In this document: piece after piece, positions 10,271 through 17,203 of the stretch
How the letters are laid out: each line of letters starts with the position of its first letter
How positions within the stretch are numbered: position 1 is the first letter of the stretch
Made by a program: the position numbers and the translations under genes
DNA from: Minutocellus sp. GHC0000111
Lineage: Eukaryota
Direction: 5' to 3'
Assembly (NCBI GenBank): GCA_977018835.1
Contig: OZ361259.1
Span: 310,001 to 374,000, forward strand
Length of the DNA: 64,000 nucleotides
The notes under the pieces: generated by a model
The model's database searches: none
The model's input: only the letters and a program-made list of their open reading frames with translations
Told to the model about the DNA's origin: nothing

Positions 10271-11022
10271 TCATAGCTTCGACGTTAACTGCGGAGCCTG
10301 TGCCCGGCTCTTGCCTTCCACTTTCCTAGACATAATGGCAACCATATCTTTTTCCAACATGGGTGGTTTGTAAAGCCATTGGCCACCATCAACAATCAAG
10401 ACATCGCCGGTTACGAAGCTCCCGCTTCCTTCGCTGGATAAATACACAGCCGACATGCCAATGTCGAATCCCCTTCCCATTCGACCAAGGGGAATACCCT
10501 CGGATACCATTTCATTCATGTCGTCTCCATCGATCCCGGGAGACAGCTTGGTCATACCCGGCGTTCCCTCAATCGGTCCTGGCGCAATGCCGTTGACGCG
10601 AATGCCGTCAGCACCCCACTCGAGAGCGAGGCTTCTAGTAATGGAGTCCACGGCAGCCTTGGCAGCACTTGCATGCACTTGATACCACGTCGCCGGGCAC
10701 TGCAGCGTTGCAGATATATTAATGATAGAGCCATTGCCACTTGCTTTCAAGGCCTCGTATGCCGCATGAGACATATTGTATGTTCCAATGGTGTCGATCT
10801 CCAATACTGTCCTGAACCCCTTTGGTCGGAGGTCAGAAGCATTGGATAGAAAGTTCCCAGCTGCACCATTGATAACAATATCCACCCGACCAAATTTTTC
10901 CAACGCGTACGCAACAACATCCACACAGGCGTCAGGATCTCGGACATCGCAGGTTTTGTACAAACAAGGCCTTCCGGAATCGGCGGTGAGGGCCTCTGAC
11001 GCACGTGAGAGGAAACCCTCTC
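10271..11022 (-). pseudogene. DECR2: Peroxisomal 2,4-dienoyl-CoA reductase (SDR), 5'-truncated
   Basis: NGAAGNF, HASAAKAAVDSITRSLALEWG, VNGIAPGPI and C-terminal SKL (PTS1); the N-terminal TGGGSGIG NADPH-binding motif and ATG are absent and unrelated sequence begins at ~11023. Confidence 0.8.
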
Positions 11023-11397
11023 TCAGACTTTGCACATGGCTATCAAGGCGGTCGCCGACGGCAATGAAACTTGCACAGCAGGTAGACTAGATGATTGCGC
11101 ATTCGTGGGTGCAAGTGCGGTCGAATTTGGTTGCATGTTTGTTGAGGAACGGTTCGTCGAAGATGTGCTTTTTTGGGGCATCTTCGTGCATCTCGTCGAT
11201 CGAGACCGAAAATTCATTACAACCCTAACCCTCACAGTTAAAACACTCGAAAATGCTAGATGCAGTGCATTAAGAGGGCGCTGTCCATAATTTTCCCCGT
11301 TTTTAATCCCCTTTATTCTTATTTCTTATGACGAGCGAAGCATGACAAAAACTCGACCCCACCATGAGAATCGCCGCTCTGCCCCCTCTTCATTACG

Positions 11398-12627
11398 ATG
11401 AAGCGCAGCGCTGATAATAGTGCTGGCCCGGCCCACAACGCAGATACGCGGTTGCGGAAACTCAAGACAGATAACTCCGGTCGCCCGATTTTGCCTGTTG
11501 ACAAGAAGAAAGAGAAGGCGGAGGACAAAGCGAAAGACGCCGTTACCGAGACACTGGAGGGCCTCGCCGTCACGTTGGAGAACGACCCGAACGGACAAGG
11601 ACGAGAATTATGGAACAATCCCGGCGTCGGCCATGCACTTCAACATCTTGTCAAAGCAGTCGAGGCTCGCGCTGATAAGTATCATGTTCGGGATGATATT
11701 GATGTCGCTGCTGAGCGGCCCGGCCTCGTAGTTACCAACCTGTCCGTGGCTGATGTGAAGTTGAGGCTGACGGTCGGCATCGTCGATCAATTGCAAGATC
11801 CCATGTTTGACGCCGGACCTGAATTCTTCCCTATATTTCAACTTCATGGGAAACGGATCGATATTGGATCGGCTCTTGCTGCGCACGGCCGACCTTTCAA
11901 CACCACATCGCTTACTTTGCTTGATGGAAGCGGAAAGCTTATCGTCGCTCGTGTTGCCCTGACAATTACCGAAAAGGCCCGAAGTCTACAACAGGGCCAT
12001 GTGATCAAATTGACAAAGTTCCACCGATGGCATGTGGCTCCATATGATGACATACACTCTACTGCTGGGATTGGACTAGTTGATTTTGATATTGTTGGAA
12101 TGGGCCAACTTCTGCAGGTAGATGGTGGGCCATCAGCAGCGATCAGATCGGACACGGATGCTCTTGTTGCGGCCGTTTGTGAGGAAGCCGACGATGATCC
12201 GACGGCAGCGCCGGAGGCAGACACATTCGGTAATTGGGACGAGACCAGAGAGAGGCCGCCAATACCCCCTGCTTGCTGCACTGCCGCCAACCGAAGCTGC
12301 TCAATGTACGGCACACTCTTCTTTCAGAAATGCGTCTGCGAAGAAATGCTGGTGCCGACGGAGGAGGACCTGGAGGATATCGCTGACAAATACTACGCAA
12401 CCACCATGCCAGTCGAAGCCATGGCAAATAATTTGAAGAGGAACATGCTGTATTGGTACTATGCAACTGAGGTGTATCATGTGAGAGGTTGGCTTGATCG
12501 GAAGCCCTTGCCAACCTGTCTAGTCTTTTGCATCAGGTTCATTTATCCAAATGATAAAGGTGAACGATATGTTGGATTCATCCCTGGTCATCAAGATGAA
12601 GAGGAAGAAGAAGAGGAAAATGCATAA
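11398..12627 (+). CDS. Transposon accessory protein: RPA70N-like OB fold plus C-terminal KolX/P2X7-C-terminal-like Cys-rich domain
   Basis: Intact 409-aa ORF inside the TIRs; LTVGIV...PIFQL...LTLLDG...LQQGHVIKLTKF...LVDFDIVG resembles the RPA1 N-terminal OB fold; CC-x6-C...CVC...KRNMLY...RKPLPTCLVFCIRFIYP resembles the P2X7 tail/KolX signature. Confidence 0.7.
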   Translation: MKRSADNSAGPAHNADTRLRKLKTDNSGRPILPVDKKKEKAEDKAKDAVTETLEGLAVTLENDPNGQGRELWNNPGVGHALQHLVKAVEARADKYHVRDDIDVAAERPGLVVTNLSVADVKLRLTVGIVDQLQDPMFDAGPEFFPIFQLHGKRIDIGSALAAHGRPFNTTSLTLLDGSGKLIVARVALTITEKARSLQQGHVIKLTKFHRWHVAPYDDIHSTAGIGLVDFDIVGMGQLLQVDGGPSAAIRSDTDALVAAVCEEADDDPTAAPEADTFGNWDETRERPPIPPACCTAANRSCSMYGTLFFQKCVCEEMLVPTEEDLEDIADKYYATTMPVEAMANNLKRNMLYWYYATEVYHVRGWLDRKPLPTCLVFCIRFIYPNDKGERYVGFIPGHQDEEEEEEENA

Positions 12628-12731
12628 TCATTACCTCAACACATGTAGATAACAAGAATGTGCGTAGCACGTGAGTAACAGCACACAATAAATCCATTTT
12701 TATTTACAGTGATAAAATATTTTACACGTGT

Positions 12732-15046
12732 TTACAAGCTGCCATTTTCTCTCAGTATCGCCGGCATCCAAGAGCTAACATCATTTGCCGATACACCGAA
12801 GTTTGTCTTAGCTTTCTTATTATTTCTTGCAGATTTCTTGTTGCTGCCTGGGCTTCTGCGCTTCTTTCCGGCGTAAACGACAACGTCGTCAGCATCGTCG
12901 CATTGACATTCAGCCCGAGTGTGGCCAAGCTGCTTGCATTTCTGACACTGCTGGTCAATCTTCTTCTTGCGGCCAGGCTTTGCTGGTTTCGCCTTACCAG
13001 CAGCTAGGGCCCTGTTCTTCTTGTACACATAGTCCTTGTCGTCTTTCTCGCTTCTGTTTCGCAAGGCTGCTCGAAGGCGCTTGCTGTCGCTCTTGCTCTT
13101 TTTGTACTCATCGGTGCGCTTACGCGCAAGGTCGCCCTCGAGCTTCCGGTCAATTGCATCGAATCCATCTTTTCGGGTAGGAGAATCCCTCGATCCCAAC
13201 TTTCCAAGAACTCGCTCATTGAATTCCGTACCCAGTGACTTGTGGCCAGCGGCTCTACTTGTTGCATTTGGGTAGGCGTCTGAAGCAGTCAAATTCGGCC
13301 TTTTCCCCATCGTGAACTTCGTCACCATCCCGTTGAGCTGTTCGACGCCGGTGGTAGATTCCTTCTTGCAGTTGGAGTCGGCAGTATTCTTGTTGATTCT
13401 CTTGGTTATTTCAAGCGTCATCTTGCGAATCGTGTCGTCACTAATCTCCAATATGTCGCCATCGAATTGATTCCCCGAGCTCCATTCCTCATCGAGCTTG
13501 CCATCACTCCAATCAGGATGAGCAATGCTGAGGTGAATCCAATCACACGTGTTGGTGGTGCAAAAAGTGTGAATGCCACATTGGTGACGAACGACGGACT
13601 GGAGTTCTTTCTGAAGGAGGGCCAGATGACTTTGTTTTTCCTCCTCGGACACAGCACCATCGGGCTGATCGAGAACGCTGTGCTTGTACCGATCAGTAAT
13701 CTTCGAAATGTCCTGTTTCATCCGATTGATGCGTGGTCGGGGGATGGCATTAAAATTTTCAACTCCCAACATTCTCGGCCAGATGCTCCTCTGCCACACC
13801 GGGGGAGTAGGAAGAGTTGCGATAGCAGAAGCCATCATGGTCGTACAGGGCCAGTGTCTCATCCTTGCTCATGTTTTTGAGCTCAACTCGGCGTTATTGG
13901 ATTGCCGGCTTCCCGCCTCTCCCTCAATCTTGCATTGCAGGCTCTCACGCAACAGTGGCAGCTTGCCTGAGAGATTCCCTTGTCAACAACAAGGCCAGTT
14001 TCCTTGTCTACGGCAAATACCGCTGCAGCAGAGCCAGTGTAGCAATGGCCGTAGTCGCGTTTGAGGGCGCTGCCGTCTTGGGCCACCGTAACCACCGCCG
14101 CCGTGTGCATCTCGCCGCCTTGTTCAAACTCAACAGTCTTGCTGCTAGCGGCATGTGCTTTTGCCCTATTCTCGTCAATGATTTCATCAGCTGCTTCAAT
14201 AGCCGCTGCTCTGCATTTCTTTTCCACCTGTCGGGCATTCTTTTCGGTCGGATGGACGATGTCGGCCTTCGTGCAGAAATTCATGAAGCGACTTGCGCAC
14301 ATGGCCTCATCTTCCGCTGCCTCCATCAGCTCCAAGTTCATTCCAGCCTGACTTCTAGAATGCTTTCTGCCGGGGCACACAACTTCTGACCTCTGGCCGA
14401 TCCCAGTGCAAAAAGAAAAAGGTTGGTTGCATCTATCGCATCGCCATTCAAATGTAACGCCGAATCCACGCCGAACTGGCTCGGCCGAGAGATGCAGATT
14501 GCCGCACGATCGGTGGAGATTCTGTGCGAAATCACACAGCTGCTTCATCTCAACCACAATTCTTTTGCCGTTGAGCTGCACGCCGGTGATGTTGGGACGA
14601 TCGGTAGCGTTGGCGGTGGGAGTAGATGACCGACCGCCCGAAGAATTCTTGTCGGAACAATGTTTCAGTGTCGCGTTGAGATGGGGCCCATGCTTTTCAT
14701 CGTCCTGGAAGTAATTTTCAGGTGTGGTCGGCAGTGATCGCTTGCCATTGCGTTGAGAGCGTGGGCTGGCGTTATCGGCTATTCTGGAGAAGCGGTAGAA
14801 GGGCTTTGCAACGTCAAGGCCTGACATTTTCTCTGGACGTCGTCGTTGGATGTTGACCTCGTGTCGTGTTGGGACGTGTTGAAGAGATGATCGAACAAGA
14901 GAGATCTCTAAGCTCGGCGATGCGCCACCGCGCATCAAGATACGGTCAAGCTCATCAATAGTGTAGTAAGTACATCTGACGTCGTCTGGGAATGAGAGCA
15001 AGAGTGAGAGGATTGCCTCCTTGGCGTTAGCACGTGATGTTTCCAT
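12732..15046 (-). pseudogene. Kolobok/Mutator-like DDE transposase, frameshifted and internally deleted
   Basis: CG...RGFGVTFEWRCDRC; VTVAQDGSALKR (first Asp); DKETGLVVD...CHCC; short third-frame piece HDGFCYRNSSYSPGVAEEH (~13887-13762); HQCGIHTFC; TTGVEQLNG (catalytic Glu); C-terminal CxxCxxxGHxxxxC knuckle; no second-Asp (DGD-like)/CxxH segment found. Confidence 0.8.
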
Positions 15047-15518
15047 GGTTGTTTTTTTGTTTTGTGTCGGTTCTGGCGCAAGATGCGCTTTTTGATGAGA
15101 ACCTTACAAAAAGAACCCCAAATGAGGGAGACGTGCAAAAATACCCCAAACAAATATCCCCTTACCTCCCAACAGCAAAACTTCAAGATGTCTTCCCACC
15201 AGCACCACCAATGCTGGTTATGCGTCGGCCGAGACTAATTTCGGTTGATCCGACGATGATGTGTACGTCGACCATTATTATGTTTCTGAGGGAGAGTTGA
15301 TTCATCGAAGTTCCTCTGAACCAAGTGTTCCTGGAGGGATTTCCGACTTAATGCTGAAAGGAACGTCGATGACTCTTCGCCACTGTGGAGAGCGGCGGCC
15401 TTCGATGAGGAGCCCATCCTCACGTTGGAGTGCTAACTTTGGCCATGGTGCGAAGAAAAAACAGCACAAAACACGCATTTTGGGGGCTTCCTAAAAGTTA
15501 TGGACAGCGCCCTCTTAA

Positions 15519-16742
15519 AACATAAGTTAGCAACTGGAGGAAGGTTGTGTTCTATCTGTTCCTGACCGTTTTGCACCGCACTGAAGTGAGATAGCAAGGT
15601 CGGCATGAGCATCTCAACCTTAATGCCTCTAAGCATGTACTTGTTCATTCGGCTTACGGATCTCTGTATCAGAACGAACATGAATTTGTGCCTAATGAGT
15701 TGAGATGCTTTCAGTGAGATCCAGGATTTACAAGTAAGTTCCAGAGATGAACCAATTTTGCTGTTGTCCGTTCCAAAATGAAATCCTTGGTTCAACAAGT
15801 ATTGAAGAAACTTGATTGGTTCTCCATTAGAACAAAACCTTTTCTCCAGATGAAGCAAACGGTGACAGGTGGACAGAGCGTTGAAATCACCCTAAAAAAA
15901 TTGGCTCAGTTCCCCACACAGTGACGTGTAATTCTTGTGCTTGGAACATGTTGGTCTCCTGATCTTTTGAATGAATTCCTAGCATCAGGTATTTCAAACT
16001 TTAACCCATCACAAGATGCCATGCAAATGCTAAGATCAAACTGCTCGATGAGAAAAGACGGTGATGAGTCACTCTCGGCCACGACCAGATCAGCAATGTT
16101 GCGTTCTTCTTGTCCGAGAACAAATCTGGGACGGGATCTATTTCAGGCATGGACTTTTCATCGGCGGGTCCATCACACATCAAAACATAGTTTAGGCGAC
16201 TTCCTGGTGAAGCTGAAATGTCGACATTTTCACCAAGATGTCGAATGGTGGCTCTTTCTGCACGAACCACCTTTCTCCATCGTTGTTTGACAGATGTGTC
16301 CCCCCCATTGCTAAGAGACACCGAGGCACACGGGTTCCCTGTGTTGCGAGGAAACTCTGCTATGTCCTTCTTCTACTTGCTCCATGCCATTCGATAATCG
16401 GAGAAAATCTTGGAGGTTTTCATCACCATAATATCTATCTTTTATCCGAGAGAGAGAACAAGATCTGGTCCGTTTGCATCACAGAGCCATCCTCGAACAA
16501 AAGGTGCTGAAGACTTTGAAGAGAACATGTCTACATCAGTTTGTTCTCCAAACGTCCTCCCGAGAATCGCCTGAACGACTATGGACCCTGACAGCTTCAC
16601 TGACCCTCTCATTACTTTTGACGACATGTCTTCAAATGACTTGACAGTGAAACCAGAGCGATTCTTTTTCAATGCGTAGTCAGTCAAGGGGGAAGAACGC
16701 AAACTAGAGCGCAGCAAAAACTTGGCAATTGACAACTTAACC
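15519..16742 (-). pseudogene. Decayed Pol-beta-superfamily nucleotidyltransferase-like ORF (its 3' end continues at 11269-11023, beyond the Kolobok)
   Basis: Fragments in several frames: LSGSIVVQAILG...TDVDMF (GS...DxD), IADLVV...FDLSICMASCDG, RMNKYMLRGI; removing 11274-15518 fuses ...VANLCF-NALHLAF... in frame. Confidence 0.55.
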
Positions 16743-17203
16743 TGACGAAGAAAAGACGCATCATAAATGACAAAGGTTTCGTCAAAAGAATCATGTTTAT
16801 TACAAATTGTCTCACAAATTACCTTTTTTGGCTGTCGTTTTACTGGCAGGTTTTACAATTGTGTTAACAATTAACCCGACAGTAAAATAAGAGAAAAACA
16901 CATGACGCCGTCCCTTCCGTTCCCTTGTCTTCCCCTTTCTCCTCGAGCCCCCCCCCCCCTGGGATCAGTGAGCATTTATGCAGGCGAAACACTACAAACA
17001 TTCATAGAAGGCACTAACTATGCAGGCATGTAAGTCAGCAGGAGAAGAGTGCTGAAGGTGTGAAGTTGTATTACATCATTAACGAGGTTAGCACGCGCGT
17101 GGCAACACATGCACTTTCGACGGGAGCATCGATCTGGCTGCATGCTGTTGCCACCAGACCAGAGAGGTCTTTGGGTTCCAGCAAAAAGGTCAGGGGAAGC
17201 AAG

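Follow-up and report, generated by a model that had tools for sequence, protein, structure and literature searches.

What could a transposable element do with a protein that joins a fold resembling one from the large subunit of replication protein A (RPA) to a domain resembling the cytoplasmic tail of the P2X7 receptor? The question is raised by an open reading frame (ORF), here called ORF-A, of the diatom Minutocellus sp. GHC0000111, located in the 64,000-nucleotide stretch of contig OZ361259.1 that was analyzed (positions 310,001 to 374,000; hereafter the window). A first-pass annotation, made from the letters alone, had read this frame as a transposon accessory protein with an RPA70N-like OB fold and a KolX/P2X7-like C-terminus. 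The frame and the motifs quoted for it are present, and encode 409 amino acids (aa). The architecture itself (a KolX/ballast-like domain together with an RPA70N-like OB fold) and the Kolobok-type class of the element are held with high confidence. That ORF-A is a Kolobok accessory gene whose product, composed of a KolX-like predicted zinc domain and an OB fold of probable RPA1 descent, serves as an adaptor of the transposition complex is only slightly favored over its negation. In detail, the protein is laid out as follows:

11398..12627, plus strand: ORF-A, accessory gene of 409 aa, intact, with a helical N-terminal domain, an OB fold and a KolX/ballast domain
11503..11691, plus strand: small helical N-terminal domain, aa ~36-98, with helices predicted at 36-61, 67-72 and 78-94
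11755..12117, plus strand: RPA70N-like OB fold, aa ~120-240, placed by structure and profile matches
12118..12267, plus strand: acidic low-confidence linker, aa 241-290, net charge -10
12268..12582, plus strand: KolX/P2X7-ballast-like Cys domain, aa ~291-395, with near-invariant C294, C301, C312, C374, R348, G364, P372 and R380

As a single query, the ORF-A protein had no Pfam match at E<=5 and one unrelated match among PDB sequences (E 0.84); therefore, a family profile and folding were needed for both domain likenesses. A 12-sequence profile of the family matched nothing relevant. The full-length AlphaFold model, built from 12 sequences, has a mean predicted local distance difference test score (pLDDT) of 51, with ~60-79 in most blocks of the barrel.

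The C-terminal likeness, proposed for residues ~285-395, was borne out by profiles and by structure. Family profiles of 38, 65, and 118 sequences match residues 541-593 of P2X7 with E values of 3.4e-4, 1.8e-5, and 5.8e-4, respectively. Of the 118 members, 40 match the Pfam family P2RX7_C at E<=0.05 (best 3.9e-6), the window protein not being among them. Residues 285-400, folded alone with 118 rows, gave a model with pLDDT 91, and the sole match of this model at Z>=5 among 48,161 chains is rat P2X7 473-595 (PDB 6u9v; Z 5.7, next 3.2), a middling Z with a root-mean-square deviation (rmsd) of 3.8 over 102 aligned residues and 24% identity. P2X7 takes 10 of the first 11 Foldseek rows, with E values of only 0.45-1.7 (TM 0.58 at E 0.45). 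An Atlas search of the C-terminal part returned unnamed giant-virus clusters only (0.78-0.79, below lead level). Among 49 weak structural rows for a model of 12250-12597, there are three BEN DNA-binding domains (BEND3 Z 3.2, BANP 2.5, and NACC1 2.0), all within background.

Compared with the P2X7 ballast domain, also called ZCD (PF20478; Rump et al. 2020, PMC7016195), the Cys domain has the same fold by its top structural match, the third motif as LPxCxxxxIRxxYP..Y.G, and the equivalents of R546, Y550, and R578. In the strict form of that motif, (L/I/V)PSC(C/S)x3IRx2(F/Y)Px5Y(S/T)G (Rump et al., PMC7016195), none of the 10 proteins checked has it; a relaxed form, fitted to the family sequences, occurs in 9 of the 10 and in 0 of 200,000 shuffled sequences. 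The second motif remains as CC-x6-C in the close family. On the contrary, the first cysteine cluster is gone (PxWCxCx2C was not found in any of the 10 proteins checked), an extra C-x-C follows the second cluster, and there is no fusion to a channel. In the GDP site, for which R546, H547, R574, R578, and K583 were examined, only the R546 and R578 equivalents are kept, and H547, R574, and K583 are not; the ZCDs outside deuterostomes are described as keeping the same two only (Rump et al., PMC7016195). Across 60 diverse rows, the near-invariant cysteines are C294, C301, C312, and C374; Cys also occupies position 332 in 47/57 rows (Tyr in the window) and position 314 in 27/59. Because only four cysteines are near-invariant, against the seven of P2X7, one predicted zinc site is more likely than two. 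The basic residues K347, R348, R368, and R380 are also near-invariant, R348 being K/R in 100% of the rows and R380 in 96%.

For residues ~120-240, the claimed RPA70N-like OB fold was recovered by all three approaches, with RPA70N at the top of each (MCM10 being tied in the VIA comparison). Foldseek hits of the AlphaFold model at E<=0.001 are 14, of which 12 are RPA70N/Rfa1N and two are archaeal Rpa1, a proportion to be read with the many RPA70N entries that exist in the PDB. In VIA, RPA70N reached Z 10.9 (rmsd 3.1, 109 aligned), Rfa1N 10.6, and archaeal Rpa1 9.1. With the three family profiles (38, 65, and 118 sequences), human RPA70N comes up at E values of 0.06, 0.02, and 0.0036, respectively, and is the only OB fold listed at E<=10 among 177,635 PDB sequences. 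Leads of the OB clan were also given by the Atlas search, in which Rep-A_N is the best named one (0.88, a lead only). An OB fold in these residues is thus well supported.

The small helical N-terminal domain goes beyond the first-pass annotation, as does the broken transposase of the window copy (see below). Its conserved columns are P, W, L-R-x-F, and Y/F-P. The dimerization domain of the Hsc70-interacting protein (PDB 4j8c) is weakly matched by family profiles (E 0.21-0.68), and the HipN family of Pfam by 1 of 75 homologs (E 0.033), a likeness that may serve as a lead only.

The full-library profile search showed 228 clusters (50% identity) at E<=0.001, and domains were counted in the best 150 of them. 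Both the OB and the Cys domains are present in 56 of the 59 homologs of at least 300 aa, a count that is partly circular, since 52 of the 59 helped to build the profiles; of the other seven, four hold both. Among 83 shorter proteins outside the alignment, 57 have the Cys domain only and 19 have both, fragments and true OB-less forms being indistinguishable in this set. The named relatives, Minutocellus polymorphus (P0030, ~60% identical) and Extubocellulus spinifer (P0064), are both diatoms. Relatives were found neither in phage records, viral contigs, and GTDB genomes nor in a first metagenome scan with close-family patterns, and word-based protein searches returned the close family only (12 and 17 matches). 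Some other domain combinations were also met: P0120 carries Rho_N/SAP-like repeats ahead of the OB and Cys domains, and in P0193 the Cys domain follows a long region with no detected OB fold.

The association of ORF-A with a transposase is conserved among distant relatives. A scan of JGI metagenomes gave 27 loci with ORF-A relatives, and a convergent transposase was located in 15 of them by tblastn and in 21 by a profile made from 10 of those 15 plus the window. Of the 23 loci with at least 350 bases downstream, 21 have the transposase tail-to-tail; four of the six loci without it have <350 bases, and the remaining two (L011 and L027) are true misses. This pairing is kept among relatives that are only 20-45% identical. 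TTAA-flanked relatives are represented by L010 (4,668 bp) and L019 (4,842 bp, 457-nt arms), each a complete element of the form TTAA-GG..CC-TTAA; no clear ends were recognized for L001 and L003. In the two of four pairs that are not saturated, the ratio of nonsynonymous to synonymous substitutions (dN/dS) is 0.08 and 0.07 in the Cys domain, against 0.22 and 0.14 in the OB domain and 0.40 and 0.26 in the N-terminal domain. The fusion of OB and KolX is old and maintained by selection.

Further observations were made on single loci. The complete relative at L019:6392-11233 has perfect 457-nt terminal inverted repeats (TIRs) and 50-nt internal repeats 180 nt apart, and it lies next to an open frame of 1,668 codons (L019:1231-6234). 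At L001:425-3217, inverted arm segments of 194 and 139 nt surround an intact accessory gene with a small transposase remnant only.

In the window, ORF-A and a convergent Kolobok-type transposase are enclosed by a 4,249-bp unit (11270-15518), which ends in 25-nt inverted arms, TTAA included, that are 96% complementary, with GA..TC inside the TTAA. The window was compared with contigs from public sequencing runs (8 of 24 runs; X-numbered samples). The features of the unit are:

11270..11273, no strand: left TTAA target-site duplication, the point at which contigs from other samples part from the window (their loose ends are at 11268-11270 in X1, X5, X9, X12, and X20)
11274..11294, plus strand: left TIR, with a 5'-GA start (RR)
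12732..15046, minus strand: Kolobok-type DDE transposase, tail-to-tail with ORF-A (PF20700, E 1e-14), broken in the window copy
13766..13767, minus strand: internal deletion point, a tblastn gap at which residues 434-500 of P0043 (second catalytic Asp and DxxH) are unmatched in the window
13885, minus strand: frameshifting extra base, missing from contigs of X1, X5, X7, X9, X13, and X17 (6 of the 8 runs; no run is listed with the extra base)
14986..15165, minus strand: 180-nt GT..AG intron-like segment at the 5' end of the transposase, spanning the ATG at 15046
15494..15514, minus strand: right TIR, with a TC-3' end (YY)
15515..15518, no strand: right TTAA target-site duplication (loose ends at 15518-15520 in X1, X9, X12, and X13)

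Beyond both TTAA ends, the flanks vary among the contigs of the other runs. At 90% identity, the cluster of the ORF-A protein has 71 near-identical members; one variant (P0016), from which the window protein is one residue away, occurs on 22 contigs, and of the 16 other full-length variants retrieved, 15 lie within 1-5 residues of it. Because of the varied flanks, the 71-member cluster, the 22-contig variant, and these small differences, the element is multicopy, mobile, and young. The placement of ORF-A in a transposon, as first annotated, is therefore upheld by TIRs, TTAA ends, a convergent transposase, and many different flanks. The sixteenth variant (P0020) has 27 residue differences, nearly all of the A>G or T>C type (Y>H/C, I>V/T, T>A, and N>D/S), and stays unexplained, as a hypermutated copy or a sequencing artefact, next to 15 sister copies with 1-5 differences. 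Two chimeric frames (P0045 and P0047), in which the start of ORF-A is joined to antisense transposase, are further internal-deletion derivatives. The depth contrasts between contigs (~7,900 vs. 59 in X7, and 830-1,800 vs. 8-12 in X9) are not copy numbers, and the coverage of ORF-A by contigs of RNA libraries is no proof of transcription.

The transposase is intact in the relatives P0043 (853 aa) and P0044 (896 aa), both of which have a CCHC finger between the first and the second D, followed by DxxH, an H-x2-G-x-H finger, and the final E. The finger between C/DxxH and the last E is conserved as H-x2-G-x-H-x2-C in the window, P0043, P0044, and all 10 aligned JGI loci. The Kolobok catalytic motifs are found in P0043, P0044, and the JGI loci; the window copy is without the second D and DxxH. 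Longer transposase forms leave the window at 13766 in X5, X7, and X9, and contigs of X17 and X20 continue like the window. The window copy is thus non-autonomous, with an intact second gene. At the 5' end, the joint 14985-15166, with CT..AC ends, occurs in contigs of X1 (RNA) and X9, its short side being 24-28 letters. Removal of the 180-nt segment takes out the first transposase ATG, yet the segment is kept as coding in P0043, which suggests a splice-based control of the transposase.

Koloboks and piggyBacs are told apart by the TTAA duplications and the RR..YY termini (PMC9587614). TTAA duplications are found in the window, L010, and L019, and so are RR..YY termini with TIRs (GA..TC in the window and GG..CC in L010 and L019). 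A piggyBac identity is rejected, since the element has RR..YY termini and its transposase has DxxH. The closest described system is KolX of the Kol0 (Kolobok0) lineage, typified by Kolobok-1_XT, that is, the second gene of a TTAA, RR..YY Kolobok, of unknown function (Kojima and Bao 2022, PMC9587614). ORF-A is likewise the second gene on such an element and has a ballast-fold domain matching P2X7 473-595. Unlike Kol0 KolX, it carries an RPA70N-like OB fold and a helical N-terminal domain, and instead of seven conserved cysteines and a two-zinc ballast it has four near-invariant cysteines and a fifth in 47/57 rows, PxWCxCx2C being absent. The second CCHC finger after the first Asp, present here, is listed for KolobokP, E, D, 5, and solitary families and not for Kol0, in a list that is not closed (PMC9587614). 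In addition, the sources named for Kol0 in that article are animals only, whereas those of the present family are diatoms. The element is not assigned to Kol0, since it lacks the seven-cysteine KolX and has the second finger, a feature weighed with the reserve that this list is open.

KolX-like tails outside animals are also known from piggyBacs, where a truncated KolX is borne by piggyBac-2_GrCh and piggyBac-14_PI (Data S6, PMC9587614); as judged by eye, these are short and without an OB fold. A known diatom Kolobok with a CCHC finger, Kolobok-1_FraCyl of Fragilariopsis (PMC9587614 supplement), differs by eye in the motifs around the first Asp, the comparison covering the transposase core. 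With RPA70N and Rfa1N (PF04057, Rep-A_N), the OB fold has its best fold and profile match, and the motifs L-T/S-x-G, P-I/V-L-Q-V, and D-G are common to them. Unlike those proteins, ORF-A is without DBD-A, B, and C and the RPA trimer core, its basic groove is unconserved, and it falls below the Pfam cut-off. In Helitrons, the RPA70-like proteins reportedly use the OB folds that bind single-stranded DNA (ssDNA). ORF-A resembles them as a transposon-encoded relative of the large RPA subunit (PMC4344730), but Helitrons are rolling-circle elements with an ssDNA intermediate, whereas the present element is of the cut-and-paste DDE kind and has, joined to KolX, the N-terminal docking-type fold only.

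Five types of Kolobok accessory genes were listed in 2022, namely DEDDh, lambda exonuclease, His-Me finger, RecQ, and KolX (PMC9587614). The term RPA does not occur in the main text of that article, nor does RPA70 in the main text of PMC3627910. The first-pass annotation knew of no description of this architecture, and no description of a KolX-OB fusion was found in the literature (listings and abstract starts) or under the supplement terms, a search outside of which lie Repbase Reports, most subscription journals, and the figure-only KolX alignment (Figure S6, PMC9587614). The fusion defines a Kolobok lineage with an accessory domain beyond the five types, and the best reading is that the KolX of a new lineage gained an RPA70N-derived domain.

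The function of this domain may be approached through its groove. RPA70N has a very weak affinity for ssDNA, and its docking site for acidic peptides is a groove whose lining includes R31, R41, R43, and R91 (PMC10479964). In the register of one HMMER alignment, which is possibly off by a strand step, the equivalent columns hold K/R in 12, 32, 37, and 36% of the rows of the family, the background being 11%; all four are kept in 0/58 rows, three in 7/58, and at most one in 40/58, and in the window protein the residues equivalent to R41, R43, and R91 are T, S, and T. The most conserved residues of the OB fold are structural (L124, T125, G127, P145, D176, G177, and G200), and the groove columns are variable. 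A conserved core with a variable groove points to a docking module whose partner would change by lineage, and an adaptor is therefore favored. The mechanism proposed for it is tentative, with somewhat less than an even chance of being correct. The Cys domain would bind one zinc through the four near-invariant cysteines, and its conserved K/R residues would contact DNA or the transposase. The OB fold would keep the RPA70N barrel with a re-tooled groove and dock a lineage-specific protein partner, the simplest candidates being the transposase with which it co-evolves and a host repair factor present at the gap left by excision, and would not be a general RPA mimic toward all checkpoint proteins. 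The helical N-terminal domain may dimerize the protein and so bridge the two ends, and broken copies such as that of the window would still encode the cofactor.

To the groove register are added other points that weigh against this reading. The sequence match to RPA70N is modest (E 0.0036-0.06), and MCM10, whose OB fold binds ssDNA, reaches Z 10.0 and 9.3 in VIA, the former counting as tied with the 10.9 of RPA70N; for these two reasons, the derivation of the fold from the N-terminal domain of RPA1 is likely rather than proven. Pfam Rep-A_N stays below its cut-off, with 5 of 75 homologs at E<=0.1 and a best score of 20.2 vs. the gathering 26.7 bits; three of these five also match P2RX7_C. Position 185 (strand 3) is K/R in 60% of the rows and 212-213 are often aromatic, which suits nucleic-acid binding. 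No empty insertion site was seen in the eight runs compared. Finally, the accessory and transposase trees of 11 pairs, which have nearly all groupings in common (Mantel Spearman 0.85, 0/5000 permutations) and speak for the reading, carry a limit: two of the pairs are near-duplicates, and physical linkage alone yields co-divergence.

A different and unlikely function of the OB fold would be the binding of ssDNA, by which it would grip the short overhangs of TTAA, or donor ends after resection, and guide how they are repaired, with KolX anchoring it to the transposase. Most structural neighbors below RPA70N do bind nucleic acid (MCM10 Z 10.0, Teb1, RADX, and RPA DBD-A 8.4), K/R is frequent not only at 185 but also at 168 (58%) and 204 (59%), aromatics occupy 213 in 58% of the rows, and an RPA70-like protein is carried by Helitrons (PMC4344730). 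Yet among the OB folds of the PDB the profile matches only RPA70N, itself very weak for ssDNA, and a single OB fold is present, whose region has a median net charge of +1 (range -4 to +8, 58 rows). The same groove counts bear on a decoy that would soak up acidic peptides of the ATRIP, MRE11, and RAD9 types and damp checkpoint signaling at transposon breaks. RPA70N-peptide complexes lead both fold searches, and the window protein has basic residues where RPA70N has R31 and R81, with an added arginine, R185, in its groove; however, a decoy for conserved host motifs should show a conserved groove, and the four key arginines are lost as described above. Because the groove arginines are unconserved and the median charge is +1, strong ssDNA binding is not favored and a faithful decoy for ATRIP/MRE11-type peptides is weakened to a poor probability. 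The functions offered by the first-pass annotation (binding ssDNA, or recruiting or decoying host repair factors) fit only in part. A broader idea, that a lineage of algal Koloboks acquired the domain of RPA1 that docks checkpoint proteins in the distant past, joined it to KolX, and now steers host repair or checkpoint factors through its own RPA-like recruitment platform at the breaks it makes, is rather unlikely.

An improbable role in transcription or anti-silencing would have KolX bind the DNA of the element and the OB fold engage chromatin proteins, so that the copies stay expressed. ORF-A is intact next to a dead transposase in the window and between the long inverted arms of L001, and the near-invariant basic residues of the Cys domain and its weak BEN matches would suit such a role; but the BEN values are those of the background, no chromatin-type domain was found, and the copies are so young (1-5 changes in 15/16) that an intact frame requires no selection. 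It is very improbable indeed that ORF-A does nothing for the element, as cargo captured from the host or as a single-copy host gene that became domesticated. Six of the 27 loci lack the transposase, most of them with a short downstream sequence, and P0057 has an OB domain preceded by a hydrophobic N-terminus of unrelated sequence and has no Cys domain. Against these cases stand the tail-to-tail arrangement in nearly all testable loci, the near-congruent trees, dN/dS well below 1, and the 71 near-identical cluster members; with the linkage to the transposase conserved, the host-gene reading is rejected.

In the neighborhood of the element, two further repeats flank it (11029-11256 and 16738-16950), at which several runs show higher contig depth as well as loose ends. 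A short-chain dehydrogenase gene is located at 10271-11020 on the minus strand (PF13561, E 1.4e-42, profile positions 37-234). It is without its N-terminal part beside the repeat at ~11029, and the glycine-rich start pattern is unmatched in the window; the gene may be disrupted or have a distant first exon.

KolX is of unknown function, and it is nevertheless the proposed source of the ballast domain of the P2X7 receptor. A long-kept natural fusion of KolX with a fold like that of RPA70N offers a Rosetta-stone clue to an action of KolX at DNA breaks, within the nucleus. Since this young family is abundant and has relatives with intact transposases, the role of the accessory gene is testable in a diatom transposition assay. 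If the idea of a recruitment platform at breaks is true, the KolX proteins, and with them the ancestor of the P2X7 tail, would be transpososome-bound adaptors that tie transposition to DNA repair.

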